DNA of 64,000 bases from Callorhinchus milii (lineage: Eukaryota). The stretch covers positions 48,052,001 through 48,116,000 of the forward strand of contig NW_024704742.1 of assembly GCF_018977255.1 (NCBI RefSeq). Direction: 5' to 3'. The notes under the pieces are model-generated. The model was not told the origin of the DNA. It saw only the letters and a list, made by a program, of their open reading frames with translations, and did not search any database. Both the position numbers and the translations under genes were made by a program. Positions 2,671 through 55,370 of this stretch are shown piece by piece (the first letter of the stretch is position 1; the number at the start of each line of letters is the position of its first letter).

Positions 2671-5600
2671 CCCCCAGCCCCCCCCCCAGCCCGCCCCCCC
2701 CAGCCAGCTCCCACACCCCAGCCCCCCCCCAGCCCCCCCCCAGCCAGCCCCCCCCCCCCAGCCAGCTCACACACCCCAGCCCCCCCCCAGCCCCCCCCCA
2801 GCCAGCCAGCCCCCCCCCAGCCAGCCCCCAGCCAGCCCCCCCAGCCAGCTCCCACACCCCCAGCCCCCCCCCCCCCCCAGCCAGCCCCCCCCCCCACCAG
2901 CTCACCACCCCAGCCAGCCCCCCCCCCAGCCCCCCCCAGCCCCCCCCAGCCAGCCCCCCCCCAGCCCCCCCCCCAGCCAGCCCCCCCCCAGCCAGCCCCC
3001 CCCAGCCAGCCCCCCCCCCAGCCAGCCCCCCCCCACCAGCCCCCCCAGCCAGCCCCCCCCCCAGCCAGCCCCCCCCCAGCCAGCCCCCCCCCAGCCAGCC
3101 CCCCCCCCAGCCAGCCCCCCCCAGCCAGCCCCCCCCCAGCCAGCCCCCCCCCAGCCAGCCCCCCCCAGCCAGCCCCCCCAGCCCCCCCCCCCCCCAGCCC
3201 CCCCCCCCAGCCCCCCCAGCCCCCCCAGCCCCCCCAGCCCCCCCCCCAGCCCCAGCCACCCCCCCCCCAGCCCCCCCCCCCCCACCCCCCCCCCAGCCCC
3301 CCCCCCCAGCCCCCCCCAGCCCCCCCCCACCAGCCCGCCCCCAGCCAGCCCCCCCCCCACCAGCCCGCCCCCCAGCCAGCCCCCCCCCACCAGCCCGCCC
3401 CCAGCCAGCCCCCCCAGCCCCCCCCAGCCCCCACCCCCAGCCCCCACCCCAGCCCCCCCAGCCAGCCCCAGCCCCCCCCCCAGCCAGCCAGCCCCCAGCC
3501 AGCCAGCCCCCAGCCAGCCAGCCCCCCAGCCCCCCCCAGCTAGCCCCCCCCCCAGCCAGCCCACCCCCAGCCCAGCCCCAGCCAGCCCCCAGCCAGCCCC
3601 AGCCAGCCCCAGCCAGCCCCCCCCCCAGCCAGCCCCCCAGCCAGCCCCCCCCAGCCAGCCCCCCCAGCCAGCCCGCCCCCCAGCCAGCCCCCCCAGCCAG
3701 CCCGCCCCCCCAGCCAGCCCGCCCCCCCAGCCAGCCCGCCCCCCAGCCAGCCCGCCCCCCAGCCAGCCCGCCAGCCAGCCAACCCCCCCAGCCAGCCAAC
3801 CCCCCCAGCCAGCCCCCCCAGCCAGCCCCCCCCAGCCAGCCCCCCCCCAGCCAGCCCCCCCCAGCCAGCCCCCCCCAGCCAGCCCCCCCCCCCAGCCAGC
3901 CCCCCCCCAGCCAGCCCCCCCCCAGCCAGCCCCCCCCCCAGCCAGCCCCCCCCCAGCCAGCCCCCCCCCCAGCCAGCCCCCCCCCCAGCCAGCCCCCCCC
4001 CAGCCAGCCCCCCCAGCCAGCCCCCCCCCCAGCCAGCCCCCCCCCCAGCCAGCCCCCCCCCAGCCAGCCCCCCCCCCCAGCCAGCCCCCCCCCCAGCCAG
4101 CCAGCCCCCCCCAGCCAGCTCCCCCCCCCAGCCAGCTCCCCCCCCAGCCAGCCCCCCCCAGCCAGCCCCCCCCCAGCCAGCCAGCCAGCCCCCCCCCCAG
4201 CCAGCCCCCCCCCAGCCAGCCCCCCCCAGCCAGCCAGCCAGCCCCCCCCCAGCCAGCCCCCCCCCAGCCAGCCAGCCCCCCCCAGCCAGCCAGCCCCCCC
4301 CCAGCCCCCCCCCCAGCCAGCCAGCCCCCCCCCAGCCAGCCCCCCCCAGCCAGCCAGCTCCCCCCCCAGCCAGCCCCCCCCCAGCCAGCCCCCCCCCCCA
4401 GCCAGCCCCCCCCCCAGCCAGCCCCCCCCAGCCACCCCCCCCAGCCAGCCAGCCAGCCCCCCCAGCCAGCCCCCCCCCACCAGCCAGCCCCCCCCAGCCA
4501 GCCCCCCCCCAGCCAGCCAGCCCCCCCCAGCCAGCCCCCCCCAGCCAGCCAGCCCCCCAGCCAGCCCCCCCCCAGCCAGCCCCCCCCCAGCCAGCCCCCC
4601 CAGCCAGCCCCCCCCCCAGCCAGCCCCCCCCCAGCCAGCCCCCCCCCCAGCCAGCCCCCCCCAGCCAGCCCCCCCCCCAGCCAGCCCCCCCCCAGCCAGC
4701 CCCCCCCAGCCAGCCCCCCCCCAGCCAGCCAGCCCCAGCCAGCCCCCCAGCCAGCCAGCCCCCCCCCAGCCAGCCACCCCCCCCAGCCCCCCCCCAGCCC
4801 CCAGCCCGCCCCCACCAACCACTCCCCACCAGCCCAGTGCCCCCAGACCTGACTTTCACTTTCGTTGCTCTCCTGCAGAGCTCAGACCTGCTTATACTGG
4901 GGAGAGATGCAGCACTGCCCGGGAGGGAGGGAGGAAGGCCCTATTCCTGGAGTGCCATCTTCTCTCCACTGGAGCTACTATTCACTCTTCCCATCCCACC
5001 ACCCACCCTTTTGTGTCCTGCTCTTGCAGGGTTGAGCTAACTCTGATGCTATGGGCTCAGCCTCCATAAGCTCCATGTGACAAAACATTATATAATCTGA
5101 TAAGCCTCCTGCAGATTCCCTGGTGATTTATTACCTGGTGACTTCTGGCGAAAAGGAAATGTCTTGGATTTAATAATAATAATATCCTTGCATTTGATAT
5201 AGTGCTTTTCACATGTTCTAAACGTCCCAAAGCACTTCACAGAATATACCGTAAAGTGAATTGACTGTATATTTGTGGGCGAACGCGGCAGCCAATTGTG
5301 CACAGCAGTGTCCCACAAACAGTCGTGGATTGAAAATGACCAATTTATTATTGTTTTGTTTTTTGGAGGGATTATTATTAGGCGTGTGGAGTAAGGAAAC
5401 TTGCCCAAGGTTTCCTTGGGCAATTTACGTACCACCCTTCTCGTAGAGAGATATCTTAGAGGACTTTACAAGGGATAATAATAATCCTTGTATTTGATGC
5501 AGCTTCTTATCATGTTGAGACATCTCAAATGCTTCACAGAATACACTGTAAAGTACAGTGACTGTGTAATACTGGGGTAGAACCCTGTGTGAGTGAGGGA

Positions 5601-23600: not shown

Positions 23601-26600
23601 AAGGGAATCGGTGTACTTCAAGTTCCTGTTTGGCTCTATTTGAAATGTTGTCATTTACAATGAAAGTGGGCCCTTGGATTGTTGTCTGAACTGCTGCTCA
23701 AGTGTCCTTTCAATAGGAATTTCTCGTAGACAATCATAAGTAAGGAGAGACGTGCAGATATGCTCTCTTTCTTGATGTCAGTTTCAGAGTTGTCGCTCTG
23801 CATCTTAATGTTAACTTTAGCTGAACAAATTAAAGAAACTGTTATCCTACTTGATAATTGAGCTTGTCTATTGCTTGTTTCAGTTTAAAAATATACAAAT
23901 GTATTTCTTTAGATGACAATTTATCTCTGGACTTAAAGTGTCAACTTGAGGGCGCGGAAGAAGAGGACCCTTCATCTTCCTTGAAGCAAGTAGCGAAAAC
24001 TAGTGGAAATCAAGGAAATAAGGCAATTGTTCAGCCATTTACTGCCAATCATAACGTGATGCAAGGCTTACCTTTTATGGACCATTGGGGCTCTCGGGCT
24101 CCTAGTGTCTCCTTAAGACACATCATGTCTGAGGAAATGAATTTCCAGGTGAAGCAAGACCAGGTATGTATGCATTTCAGTTTTGTTATGGGAATTATTT
24201 CAGTTGCCTGGAACTATGATTGGCAAGAACACAGTGAAAAGTGGAAGTGAATGGTGCTCTTTATATTATTCTTGGAGAAAAATGAAAGACCCTTCAAATA
24301 TCAGCGATTTTGTAGTCTGGGAATTGGGTGGAACATGCATCTTCTTTGCAAGATACTAGCCTAAAAATATAGTCATTTGTGTTAAGTTAAAAGACTATGT
24401 AACAGTAAATTCAATTCATATAGCGCCTTTCACATCGGAAAGATATCCCAAGGTGCTCGGACAGTTGAGGATTTACATCTGAGCTGGAGGTTTAATTTAG
24501 GAGTGGTGGGTGCCTTGGGCAGTGGGGTGGGAAAATAATCAAACATGCGGTGAAAGAGACTGGTCTTATGATGGACTTTGACGGAGAAGAGGAAAGGAGT
24601 GAGACGCAAGGACTACGGGATGGAGTTCCAGACCTACGGGGCAAAAATACTGAAAGCTTGACCCCGATGGTGGGGTGTGCAGGGTGGAGTACCTGATGCA
24701 GACTGGCGATGTGCAGCAGACCAAGGCCTGCCCAGCAGAGGGAGTGGGTGGGAAGGAAGGGTTTTAGAAGGTCACTGGGGAGGGGAAAGACCATGGAGGC
24801 ATTTAAAAGTGAGGACAAGTATCTTTAATTCAATCATATATAACATATTGCAGCTATTTTCATTATTTCTCTCTTGCAGTCCATTTTGAGTTCTCTCTTG
24901 CCCAAAAAAGACTGTGCATCAAAGTTGAAGGAGAAACAACTCTTTGACATGTTTCCAGGCATTGATAAGCACTTCATCATGGATATGTATAAAGATAACA
25001 AGTGAGTTTCATTCCAGAATGCCTAGGCTTTTGTTAGTTGTGGAAAATGCAACTTGGGGGGAGAATTTTTTTAATATCTTGCGCAGTATCATTTATTTTG
25101 TGTCAGCCCTCCATGTTCTTGTTCCTCTCTGCATTCAGCTTAGAATGGAATGCTCGTTCCCTCCCTGGAAAGATGCATCCTGCTTACCTGATTCTGAAAA
25201 GTGTTAGGTACAGGTTGGCAAAAGTCGAGGGTTGGAGCCTGAGGCTTGCAGGGTAATGGGATCTGAGTGGGAAAAGGCCCTACCCCCAATGACTGGTTTG
25301 CCTTTCTATGTCCTGCCAATGAGCCAGTCAGGTTGTCCTGTCAGCAGCAGTGCCCTGGAATACTGCGGACCCACCTAGGTCAGGAACTGGACTACTGAGA
25401 CCGCCACAGAGGGCTGGCTCAATTCTGACATTCGGTTGCCAAAGCTAGTTCAGGTTCAAGGAGACTTTGGCCTCTTCTTTTTCTCCCCCCGCCCCCCCCA
25501 AGGAGGATAAGGTGAGGAGATTGGTTGAGGAGATGCCTTACATAGTCAGATTGATTGTCACTTAATAAAAAAATTATTCCACCGTGCCTAATTTTAGTAC
25601 TTCCTCAATAAAACTTAAAATTATGTAAGACTATATTGTAATCTTCTATCTGCATTTAGTATGTCATTAGATGTGAAGTGTACTGAGAAGATAGATAGAG
25701 TCCTGTAGCTCAGTGGTTAGAGCACTTGCTTTGCAAGCGAGAGACCCGAGTTCAATTCCCGGCAGAGGGCGAAACCTTGGGCAAGTTTCCTTACTCCACA
25801 CAGAGCCTAATAATAATCCCTCCAAAACAAAACAATAATAAATTGGTCATTTTCAATCTACGACTGTTTGTGGGACATTGCTGTGCGCAATTGGCTGCCG
25901 CGTTCGCCCACAAATATACAGTCAATTCACTTTACAGTGTGTGTGTTCTGTGAAGCGCTTTGGGATGTCCTCCCGACGTGAAAAGCGCTATGTCAAATGC
26001 AAGGATTATTATTATAAGTGTACTGAGAAGATAGATAAGAGTCCTGTAGCTCAGTGGTTAGAGCACTTGCTTTGCAAGTGAGAGACCTGAGTTCAATTCC
26101 AGGCAGAGCGAAACCTTGGGCAAGTTTCCTTACTCCACACAGAGCCTAATAATAATCCCTCCAAAACCAAAAACAATAATAAATTGGTCATTTTTAATCT
26201 ACAACTGTTTGTGGGATACATTGCTGTGTGCAATTGGCTGCCGCGTTCGCCCACAAATATACAGTTAATTCACTTTACAGTGTGTTCTGTGAAGCGCTTT
26301 GAGACGTCCTCCCGACCTGAAAAGCGCTATATCAAATGCAAGGATTATTATTATAAACTATTGACATTAAGTAACAAGGCAAAGAAATGCCATTTACTGT
26401 AATTAATGTTCTTTGTAGTTCTTATTCATGACAAAAAGAATGAGCTTGAAAAAAAATAATTTTGTTTTTTCCATTAGTTATTCTTTCAATCAGACAGAAC
26501 AATTTCTGAATTCAGTGCTTGACTGTGATCCATACCCACCAAGAACTGTTGTAGCTCAGGATAGTTCCTCTCAAAATGAACAGAGTGCTGAGAGGAACAA

Positions 26601-51215: not shown

Positions 51216-54200
51216 CCTTTGCCTCAGTGAAGATGAACACTTGCATGATGGGGCAGTGGGGGAGAGCGCACTGTTTGGGTAAATAAATAGTCACATTCTT
51301 TTTCTTGTTGCTCACATGAGCAGTACTCCCCTGTTTATTAAATAACACTGATTAAAAGAATCTTTCACATCCAGAGGACAAATGTAAATAGACCAAGGAG
51401 AACCTTTGATTGTCATTTGAGACCCTCATCCCTGCCTGTGCTGAAGTAATTCCTTTAGATATGCTCAGTACTTTTCTAACAGGTACAATTCTGAAAATGG
51501 TGAGCACCAAGATACTAAAAAAATCAGGAAGACTAACCCATTACGATTTTTCTTATTGAGGTATTTTCTATTTTGAAGTTCATTTTCCTCTATTTGCTCT
51601 TAAGGAGCCGACACAGACACAAAGGCTGAATGGCCTTCTTCTGTGCTCTACATTTCTATGGTTCTTTGGTTCTATGAAGGTTGGTGACTCGTGGCGGGCG
51701 ATGGTGAACAGCTGAACCTGTCATGTCCTTCCCTGATATCTACATTTCTAGCAGGAGACGCTACTAAATAATGATAAAGAGAAGTGTAACTTCCTTACCT
51801 CTAACTTCCTTATGTTAAGGAACAGCCTGCGATTGAAGGTGGGTAAATTTAGAATAAATCTGTGGAAATACTGCTGCAGTGAGCAAGTAGTAAACATATG
51901 GAACAGGCTCCTTAGGGAGACGGCAGAAGCAGAAAGTGTTGATCTAAGAACAAATTAGATAGATTTCTGTTAGGAAATAATACCTCGGTATACAATATAT
52001 AGTTTGGTACACAACATATCATGGTGGAAGGCAAACTGGAAGGACCTTGGTCTTTTGCCTAGCAAATTCTATGTTCTTAACTGAGTTCACTCTCTTCCCC
52101 TACCCCCTCATCCCAATGTATTGGCAGCACCAAAGCCAGTTGTGTGCCCTCCTCTAGTCTCTCCCCTAGCTAACTTAGAACAGATGAAGTATTAACTCTG
52201 AAACCTTCCTAGTCTGTATGTGATTAAATATCAAACTCACAGAGGCTCGGGGAGAGCAGAACACATTTTTTTTTGGAAATGTAGTTATTACGACTATTTT
52301 TAAGTTTATACATATTTACATATGATTGTGTTAGTTCATAAATGTTACCTATGTAAATCTTCACTGGTGTTAATTTACTGAGTATTTCTATAAGAAAAAA
52401 ATAGATTGCAGTGATAGGTGGGATGTTTGACCCCCTCCCACTTCCTCTCCCCGTTTAATGGTCAGCCAGGAAGAACTCCTTGCAGGCAGACCTGTTAGAC
52501 TAAATTAATAATAATAATAATCCTTGCATTGTATTTAGTGCCTTGCATGTTGACAGGACGTCTCAAAGAGATTCACAAGGTTCACTGCATATGTAGGCGA
52601 ACCCGGCAGATAATTTGCGTACAGCAATTTCCCACAAACAGCCATAAAGTGAATGAACAATTTTACCAGGGGGATTGTGGTGGGACAGTGAGAAAAACTC
52701 CTTTTTGAATTGTGCCATGGGATCAGGCAGGATTGATTGTTGAACTGAAACTCCAAGTGGAGTTAGGCTAACATTTTATAGACTGTGTGATCACAAGGAT
52801 CATGCCTAAAATGCAGAAACTCTCATTCACTGTGTGTACTGTGTAAGTTTGTCATTGGTATTGTGTGTGAAGGCCTTTCTCTCTAAGGGCTTTTCATCAT
52901 GAGCAGCTCATAAGTAGTTACCTCTATTTCATCAATACTAATGTGGTCACTACAGTCCTCCTCCAAATTCTCTTGTTCAACCTAGGCTCAAATACGTTTC
53001 CCACAAGCTTTCTCCTCCCTGCATCATCATCGCACTAATTCCTATTCAAACTCATTCCTTTCCAGGATCAGACAACTGGAATTACTTACTTCCCTCAGTC
53101 TTCTGTTGTCATACAATTTATAGGATTTTATTATCTAGGCTTGGTGCCCTTTAATAATAATAACCCTTACATCTGCTATAGCACCTTTCATGTCAGGAGG
53201 ACATCTAAAAGAGCTTCACGGGATATACCGTGAAGTAGTGGACTGTATTTTGTTGGCAAAGCGCAGCAGTTAATTTGCACACAGCAACTTTAGCCACTTA
53301 TTGATGTATCTTTTTCTTTGTAATTTCTTTTCTCCCTAGGTGTTATGCTATACTGTGGGGCTCTGCCCTTCACTTATATTCTCAAAACAAGTTGTGGCGC
53401 ATGAAGTTCACTGTCAGTTTATAGCAAATGTTGTTTTGAACGGTGCAAATAATGGAATCTGTACAATGTAGTATTTGGATTTTTGCTTATGTTTACACGC
53501 CAAACAGACAGTGTCTACATTTTCCAGTAATTCCTGCAGGGTACTTTGGGATGTCCGCCTGACGTGAAAGGTGCCTTTTTAAATGCAAGGAATGTTATTA
53601 TTATGGTACATTTTGTTAGAATTTACACTTTTTGTATAATGCTAGAATCATAATAGATGTTGTGAATGGGTTAACTTTTAAGTTAAGTGTGGGGGGCAAC
53701 TGGACTGACTGTCATGGGATAGGACACATCTGGTTTTCTCTGTTTTTGAAAGAATAACGGACAGCTTTGGAAAAGGGCAGAGGGTCACCTCTTATCAGTA
53801 AATGACAACAAGCCCACAGAGGTAACGGTCCAAGGTACCGGTCGACACAGGATCTCGACTTAACAATAAGTCGTTAGATTCTGACAGGGCCGAGCGACAG
53901 AAGGCAACCCTCAAGAATAGCAACTAATGAGCAAGTTGCTTAAACTAGAGGGCCTTGGTACCATCCCGGGATACTGATAAGAAATAACCAGTCACTTAAA
54001 AGGAATGTACTAATGATCCCACACCACAACATAATGAGCACCAGATACAGCCCTAAACTGATCAATCCTCTATTTTAGACAATTAGATCAGATAACAGGG
54101 GTCTTAAGGACAATGTGTATGTGTGTGAGGCACGTACACCCCATGAGGTGTTCACGTGCAGGATTTCGACAGGTGATCTAAAGTCCGCACCATGATTGGA

Positions 54201-54232
54201 CGAACATCGGTAAAGAGTTCCGATAACTTTGT

Positions 54233-54505
54233 GTACGGGACCATCCCGGGTCACGGAGACAAGTACGGGAGATGGAGCCGTCCCGGGTCGCGGAGACAAG
54301 GGTACGGGCGATGGGGCCGTCCCGGGCTGCGGAGACAAGTACGGGGGGTGGGGCCATCCCGGGTCGCGGAGACAAGGGTACGGGCGATGGGGCCGTCCCG
54401 GGCTGCGGAGACAAGTACGGGAGATGGGGCCATTCCGGGTCGCGGAGACAAGGGTACAGGAGATGGGGCCATCCCGGGCTGCAGAGACAAGGGTACGGGA
54501 GATGG
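54233..54505. repeat. 37/39-bp GC-rich tandem array inside the LTR, ~7 copies
   Basis: gtacgggagatggggccRtcccgggtcgcggagacaa(gg) starting at 54233, 54263, 54302, 54339, 54378, 54415, 54454, 54493. Confidence 0.95.
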
Positions 54506-54785
54506 AAGACTGAGAGCCAGAAACATTAAGACTGAGGATATCAGATGAAAGATTGAAAGCTGTAAGCAAGAAAACTGAAAGCCTGAAGAATCAAGCTTGT
54601 GTGCTCTAAAGACACAGTGTTGAACTCGAGATATCTACAGTGGTATTCTGTTATAAGATCTGTTGATTGTACCGGCCTTTGGTCTGACCCATCGGGATAT
54701 TGGGGAATAACGAACGAATAATAATAAAACAGTCTGATATCTGGTTGCAAACGGATTATGACTGATTTTATTTCCTTAACAGATT

Positions 54786-54803
54786 TGGCGTAGTCGGCAG
54801 GAT
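54786..54803 (+). other. Primer-binding site complementary to the tRNA-Ser 3' end
   Basis: TGGCGTAGTCGGCAGGAT is the exact reverse complement of ATCCTGCCGACTACGCCA (vertebrate tRNA-Ser AGA-type 3' end, from memory); starts after a 4-nt spacer following a CA LTR end. Confidence 0.9.
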
Positions 54804-55034
54804 ACTCTGAATTAGTACACTCGGCAGTTGACGTGTTTGAGTCCAGTACGACCATAACTAGTAAATAGTTGGGACGGTGGCTGTGGTACTTGCAGAAATT
54901 ATGTGTTCGGTACGATCGTAACTAGTAGATAGTTGGCCGTGCCTGCGGGCAATTAACCCATTGGGATTCTGAGTATTAAAGAACCAATATAATCCATTCG
55001 AGCGAGTGTCTCTGATTTTATTTTCTAACAATTT

Positions 55035-55370
55035 GCCATTGTTTTACGTTGCCGTTTTAAGGTCCTGTCTGCCTGTTCAGAAGCATGTTGAAATTGCCGT
55101 GGTGCTACTTGAAAAGAGAAGGGAGTTTCTCCCATTGTCTTGGCCAACAATTCCCAAGGTAAAATTGGCCAACAATTCCCAAGGTAAAATTGGCCAACAA
55201 TTCCCAAGGTAAAATTGGCCATACACCTCATGGCTGTAAACTGTTTGCGGGACATTATTTTGCGCAAATTGGCTGCTGCGTTTGCCTACACAGTTAATAC
55301 TCTACAGTGAATTCTGTGAAGCGATTTGAGACGTGAAAGGCTCTATGTCAAATACAAAGATTATTATTAA
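55035..55370 (+). mobile_element. Deu-domain SINE fragment with a 25-bp triplication (55140-55221)
   Basis: gaaaagagaagggagtttctccc...(ttggccaacaattcccaaggtaaaa)x3...gcgcaaattggctgc. Confidence 0.8.

Follow-up and report, generated by a model that had tools for sequence, protein, structure and literature searches.

A CmiERV lineage I element in Callorhinchus milii with a primer-binding site and a second, diverged LTR end behind its LTR

Described relatives and the family of the element

The family to which the element reported here belongs is known from a provirus on scaffold 2 of the elephant shark, one of the CmiERVs of Han (2015), whose Dataset 1 supplement is the source for the comparisons below. 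In the available part of that study (PMC4422223) the provirus is placed in lineage I, grouped with snakehead retrovirus and apart from the epsilon-like lineages, and its 5' LTR closes with the same last letters as the distal end of our element, followed by a 3-nt spacer and the same primer-binding site (PBS); a relationship to snakehead retrovirus is also stated for the "clade Huo" of Xu et al. (2018) in the excerpt at hand (PMC6001957). As far as the accessible portions of the sources go, target-site duplications (TSDs) measure 4 bp in ERV1 and 5 bp in ERV3/ERV4, with the snakehead-related elements left unclassified (PMC4299795), and they measure 5 bp in class III elements and in the relatives of XtERV-S (PMC8278194). 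A TSD length for snakehead-like ERVs was not found stated in the accessible portions of the literature, PMC4455052 and PMC10435555 included.

Further systems resemble parts of the arrangement, each as represented in the excerpts available. Defective HIV-1 proviruses produced by aberrant strand transfer (PMC12657518) show template switches from U3/R to the 5' region that join LTR ends to upstream sequence; these are somatic dead ends, whereas the shark product has seemingly kept a full U3 and spread through the germ line. The recombinant recKoRV1 (PMC6112702) is likewise multi-copy and spreading, with microhomologies at some breakpoints and TSDs at its insertion sites; its partners are unrelated and its two LTRs match, whereas in the shark a diverged LTR end from the family itself was inserted behind a PBS. 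XtERV-S (PMC8278194) shares a tRNA-Ser(AGA/TGA) primer, TGT..ACA ends and LTR variants with one half replaced, but is ERV-L-like with 5-bp TSDs. Drosophila Gypsy (PMC1635307) also has two tRNA sites, but its second one, located at the 3' end, base-pairs with a different portion of the tRNA and is not used for priming.

The window, by which we mean the whole stretch of 64,000 nucleotides analysed (contig NW_024704742.1), contains one copy of the element and no second copy elsewhere in its 64 kb. A motif check of the letters placed the start, TGTTAGAA, at 53614 and the finish, TTCTAACA, at 55030, giving 1417 bp with perfect 8-bp inverted termini between two occurrences of ATTT (Table 1); length, termini and the position of every named motif agree with the first-pass annotation. 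On comparison with the available letters of the scaffold-2 provirus, which ends like the distal end in the window, these termini are the ordinary ends of the family. There are no Rfam or tRNA matches inside the element, no Pfam matches in the 5 plus-strand frames overlapping it, and the predicted fold of the leader RNA is ordinary (z = +0.71; 147 of 200 shuffles were as good); the element is noncoding, lacks a PPT and is most likely inert.

The likeness to lineage I runs through the LTR start, the 5' part of U3, the distal-type terminal sequence, the tRNA-Ser PBS and the R-U5 blocks. Counted by eye against the available sequence of the scaffold-2 5' LTR, 110 of the first 118 letters are identical, and blocks of R-U5 are also common to both; a contig from another locus begins aligning exactly at 53614. 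Judged by LTR sequence identity, and by the termini together with the tRNA-Ser PBS, the 1168-bp LTR belongs to the published, snakehead-retrovirus-like CmiERV lineage I. An initial leaning toward class I ERVs or gypsy elements does not hold, the LTR matching lineage I and not the epsilon-like lineages II/III in the part of PMC4422223 available. The scaffold-2 provirus differs, in the portion seen, in the length of its LTR (about 830 bp), which lacks the 37/39-bp array, in its R-U5 and leader, and in having one LTR end per LTR, with no second end or PBS in view. We conclude that the element is a real structural variant of a known ERV family, common to a sub-lineage, and not a new class of mobile element.

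Two further observations concern U3. The LTR-start motif is repeated at 53640-53648, 26 bp into U3, and this second occurrence is exact in the published provirus as available and in about 90% of the contig depth. The tandem array at 54237-54505 is typical of the abundant LTR subtype, and the contigs show several replacements of this region, indicating that U3 is modular in the CmiERV lineage I family.

Table 1. Parts of the element and its host flanks, in window coordinates
Feature	Position	Strand	Basis or remark
3' tail of abundant SINE, host flank	53492..53603	+	
Left ATTT, candidate target-site copy	53610..53613	+	Single contigs cross the left junction up to 53638
Complete LTR (U3-R-U5), CmiERV lineage I family, abundant subtype	53614..54781	+	1168 bp; sequence match and depth
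5' part of U3, common to the published CmiERV scaffold-2 LTR	53614..54197	+	By-eye comparison with the available sequence; end point approximate
U3 tandem array, 37/39-bp units, 76-bp dimer x3.3	54237..54505	+	Absent from the published provirus as available
TATAA, candidate TATA box	54652..54656	+	Inferred from letters
AATAAA poly(A) signal	54723..54728	+	59 bp from internal end
Internal LTR end	54762..54781	+	Last 8 letters and spacer unlike the published family form as available
Intact 18-nt PBS, tRNA-Ser(AGA/TGA)	54786..54803	+	4-nt spacer before PBS; same PBS in CmiERV scaffold 2 as available
Leader stub	54804..54837	+	Unlike the published provirus leader as available; multi-copy in contigs
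Two copies of 64-bp-spaced repeat, homologous to LTR U3-end/R region	54838..54936	+	
Diverged second LTR 3' end (U3-end/R/U5-like)	54881..55030	+	ATTAAA at 54975; intact family terminus at 55012-55030
ATTT(G): target-site copy on the right, native spacer with the opening PBS letters, or both	55031..55035	+	
SINE body, host flank	55059..55170	+	

The primer-binding site and the two LTR ends

Behind the internal LTR end lies an intact PBS, as first annotated: all 18 of its 18 positions are complementary to the 3' end of tRNA-Ser-AGA-1-1/TGA-2-1, these being mammalian tRNAs and not those of the host (PMC10359600, in the part available), and the matching 18-mer is listed as a tRNA fragment in the accessible part of PMC12025293. 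The leader of about 150 bp that had been described behind it survives in part: some 30-75 bp after the PBS are unrelated to the LTR, the remainder being two copies of a repeat that are spaced by 64 bp, homologous to the 3' part of the LTR and 83% alike over a 35-bp core.

Some 30 bp past the PBS sits a diverged LTR 3' end. Homology between the two LTR ends covers about 115-150 bp, well beyond the terminal 19 bp; under all three scoring schemes none of 500 dinucleotide shuffles reached the score of the alignment, and with the last 20 bp left out 0-1 of 500 did, so that a second end distal to the PBS, as proposed at the outset, is homologous above chance. Identity is about 60-65% over the last ~115 bp in a MAFFT alignment counted by eye, and 150 of 198 aligned columns (76%) when gaps are treated leniently.

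A difference of some 25-40% between the ends is too large for two LTRs of one insertion, which had also been the earlier argument. The copy itself departs from at least 90% of the contig depth at 23 of the 36 variant positions listed within the element; such copy-specific differences amount to at least about 1.6% in the LTR and likewise in the distal part, and a number of them may be subfamily markers. CpG observed/expected ratios are 0.77 and 1.15 in the element against 0.30-0.37 in the flanks. Given the modest copy-specific difference and the retained CpG, the ends had diverged before this insertion. An internally deleted provirus, that is, a single insertion with its two LTRs, was considered and rejected, as the ends are far too different relative to the age of the copy.

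The closer match of the left terminus to the distal end than to the internal one had been taken to point to a recombinant LTR or a TRIM-like element; this argument falls away, as the LTR of the published family member closes, in the sequence available, with just the letters of the distal end. In five long contig pieces of the internal-type LTR the match breaks off at 54773, directly before the variant letters of the window, and since the family form equals the distal end, the internal end is probably a variant peculiar to this copy.

A solo LTR consists of one U3-R-U5 without PBS or internal sequence; here a PBS and 249 bp follow the first end, and only with an extended LTR would the element behave as a solo LTR.

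Copies in public contigs and the origin of the arrangement

Contigs from 4 of 24 public runs (at most 4 samples, from 2 studies) were aligned to 53350-55250 at 82% likeness. Their depths are sums over contigs and serve as order-of-magnitude guides, not copy numbers: relative to the unique flank, the median depth of the LTR was 1724x in run X1, 1519x in X3 and 889x in X4, and that of the four bins making up the distal 250 bp was 25-183x. A joint that returns from 55035 to 54794 across four other letters occurs in all four runs and both studies (depth 117, 178, 216 and 44), at 17-30x the flank in the three runs with flank cover, and a variant joint from 55018 to 54794 occurs in two of the four, with at least 41 letters on each side. 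In many copies, therefore, the diverged, distal-type end is followed by a degenerate PBS, which retains the last ten bases of the intact site, and then by the same leader stub; as the aligner's treatment of the letters up to 55035 is hidden, the "ATTTG" of these other copies is read from the end coordinate. Four X4 rows fit one contig over 54791-54934, tying the stub to the repeats.

Because the distal piece and the joints are multi-copy, the architecture is not unique to this locus, and the question raised earlier, whether the junction is a one-off, can be answered in the negative. Among the contig pieces listed, none spans the whole unit, the junction of internal end and PBS, or the right junction, and none represents another solo extended LTR or an extended 3' LTR. 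Pattern scans for the element gave no match in either viral or metagenome contigs. Run X5, labelled "RNA?", was considered as a source of evidence for transcription and discarded: the depths of the joint and of the SINE are both 0.37 of those in X1, and with an expected unique depth of about 1.8 the run behaves like shallow DNA.

The explanation that we tentatively prefer, at a probability somewhat below one half (about 0.45), is that a reverse-transcription recombinant placed a diverged LTR 3' end behind the PBS and so gave rise to a sub-lineage with two PBSs, of which this locus is a solo extended LTR. Two related RNAs would have been co-packaged, and minus-strand DNA made from one of them (variant c, copied through U5, R and the end of U3) would have switched template to just behind the PBS of the other (variant a), continuing through PBS, U5 and R; the normal jump would then produce an LTR reading U3-R-U5-PBS-stub-(U3 end-R-U5)c, behind which the provirus would carry another PBS and then the leader. 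From an RNA with two PBSs, priming at the first would yield ordinary LTRs and leave the insert within the leader, the second PBS there decaying for lack of use (the 17-30x joint), and priming at the second would give extended LTRs ending at the distal terminus. A provirus with such extended LTRs may have integrated here, its interior being lost later by ordinary LTR-LTR recombination. The candidate TATA box at 54652 suggests that U3 sequence was included in the insert.

A template switch of this kind is the simplest single event giving both the order seen in the window and the multi-copy joint, and the fact that the element stops exactly at an intact family terminus counts in favour of a solo extended LTR. 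The PBS is re-copied from the tRNA in every retroviral cycle, so that a degenerate PBS common to many copies points to an unused second site. In HIV-1, minus-strand transfers out of U3 soon after first-strand transfer are documented in the available part of PMC12657518. An origin by recombination with a related LTR, one of two options in the first-pass annotation, is judged the likeliest; the direction of capture is reversed, the LTR with its PBS being the normal 5' end and the distal LTR end the foreign piece.

The same family-level insert may instead have arrived in a provirus with normal LTRs that collapsed after insertion, by recombination of the internal distal-type end with the 3' LTR's end, leaving a real TSD. 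We consider this rather unlikely, although the final sequence would be identical to that of a solo extended LTR and does not itself tell the two apart. The recombining ends would have 19 bases in common, or 24 with a target site reading ATTTG, so that a coincidental ATTTG would lengthen the homology and hence be favoured; the family end equals the distal end in the published sequence available, the second PBS is degenerate in the multi-copy joint, which speaks against priming there, and microhomology-linked ERV recombinants are known from recKoRV (PMC6112702, in part). This route of about 20 bp would, however, have to beat the 1168-bp LTR-LTR route, and depth over 54950-55013 (97-183x) exceeds that of the joint (17-30x), which leaves room for copies ending at the distal terminus, with bin noise of several-fold.

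The first-pass annotation had also offered a minimal, TRIM-like parasite. TRIMs are defined, in the available part of PMC6934838, by two terminal direct repeats of 100-250 bp and an internal domain running from PBS to PPT. The element is similarly noncoding, with a short stretch between two LTR-like ends that starts with a PBS; it exceeds 1000 bp, a PPT is absent, and in place of terminal direct repeats a 1168-bp LTR faces an end of about 150 bp with about 60-75% identity, which sets this option aside for the element as a whole. The narrower idea, that a unit of about 245 bp (PBS, stub and short LTR end) is or was a TRIM-like mini-element or tandem array with the long LTR fused in front, seems to us very unlikely: backward joints in contigs are also expected from a head-to-tail array, the repeat number varies (an X5 contig has an additional 64-bp unit, joint 54902 to 54839) and TGTT occurs at 54834, yet the longest purine run in 54804-55030 is 6 nt, the U3 start of the family is absent from the unit, and the published definition is again at odds with the length and the unequal ends.

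If the preferred origin by template switch is true, the sub-lineage would be a readable fossil of how an LTR boundary can move once recombination has set another LTR end and primer site into the leader, a lineage so equipped either extending its LTR or letting the second site decay; roughly tens of copies in one genome make the idea testable. It would not point to a new element class or to a host function. In the literature covered, no natural ERV was found described whose leader holds a further LTR end and PBS; most subscription papers and Repbase fall outside this scope.

Junctions, host flanks and the remainder of the window

The 4-bp TSD reported at first stands in so far as ATTT is present on both sides, but its right copy is weaker evidence than it appeared. 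ATTTG are the letters that natively follow the LTR end in the scaffold-2 provirus of CmiERV lineage I, in the sequence available, and a right ATTT(G) identical to them is not independent evidence of a TSD. The local chance that a flank matches the native letters is P 0.010 for ATTT and 0.002 for ATTTG; the right flank matches the native spacer and PBS at 5 of 5 letters and at 9 of the first 12. Under a solo extended LTR and under collapse after insertion alike, the TSD is real and coincides with the native letters. This tells against a solo extended LTR, as a true TSD would need host letters that equal the native ones by chance, and so does the existence of ERV classes with 5-bp TSDs, in the sources as available, since no 5-bp match is found at the element borders of this locus. 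The spacer before the PBS can in this way be mistaken for part of a 4-bp TSD at an LTR end, a point of importance in annotating snakehead-like ERVs.

The coincidence would disappear if the right junction had formed without integrase, a cDNA with the distal terminus and a single-stranded PBS overhang annealing to a look-alike site, so that the "TSD" is microhomology. The match of the flank at 9 of 12 native letters is in keeping with this, as are integrase-less Tf1 insertions, in which the flank downstream agrees with the initial five letters of the PBS, and certain HIV-1 cases (PMC11042837, in part). Beyond the first five letters, however, only 4 of 7 match (P about 0.07, binomial), on the left the element has a clean terminus and a 4-mer that matches, and integrase-free insertions usually lack TSDs in the same source as available; we regard this alternative as improbable. 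Engineered vectors with two PBSs exist, and an ERV lineage with two primer sites would be their natural germ-line counterpart. A bolder version, which we think unlikely, is that such a lineage for a time had two working primer sites and repeatedly integrated extended LTRs carrying an internal PBS, the right end of this copy perhaps having been joined through PBS-overhang homology and not by integrase.

Least probable in our estimate is that a plain provirus was truncated a few bases past the distal end beside a chance ATTT on the left, or that repeat copies were mis-assembled. The right ATTTG is indeed the native continuation in the published sequence available, the right junction is absent among the contig pieces listed, and SINE homology across the site is not demonstrated: in the homology test, alignments to 3 window copies start at 55059-55060 and the left flank adds no gain. 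Such a truncation would, on the other hand, need a breakpoint within about 5 bp of the terminus together with a 1% coincidence on the left, and the left junction is confirmed in two runs, single contigs of X1 and X4 crossing it to 53638 with 0 and 1 differences. The unbroken left junction in these two samples fits a fixed insertion. An empty-site joint was not seen among 15 of 59 joints; the joint from 53571 to 55112, at single-copy depth, was considered as an empty allele and rejected, as what it connects is a pair of SINE pieces, not positions 53613 and 55035.

The SINE to the right of the element has what we take to be a Deu-type core, and carries a perfect 25-bp tandem triplication at 55140-55221, presumably recent. 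At 25676-26356 lie two head-to-tail copies of a 339-bp tRNA-derived SINE, 93% alike, and the tRNA calls of the window (5 by ARAGORN, 7 by Rfam) look like SINE heads. For a host gene near the element, no convincing match was obtained in 79 of the 86 plus-strand frames of at least 45 aa beyond 43 kb. At the other side of the window, exons of a plus-strand gene extend over 2318-24250, with the start of AAA_33 and matches to DUF7817/DUF7818; we assume that this gene is probably N4BP2. Directly past its first coding exon, at 2674-4835, lies a 2.2-kb C-rich simple-repeat array with a period of 15 bp.
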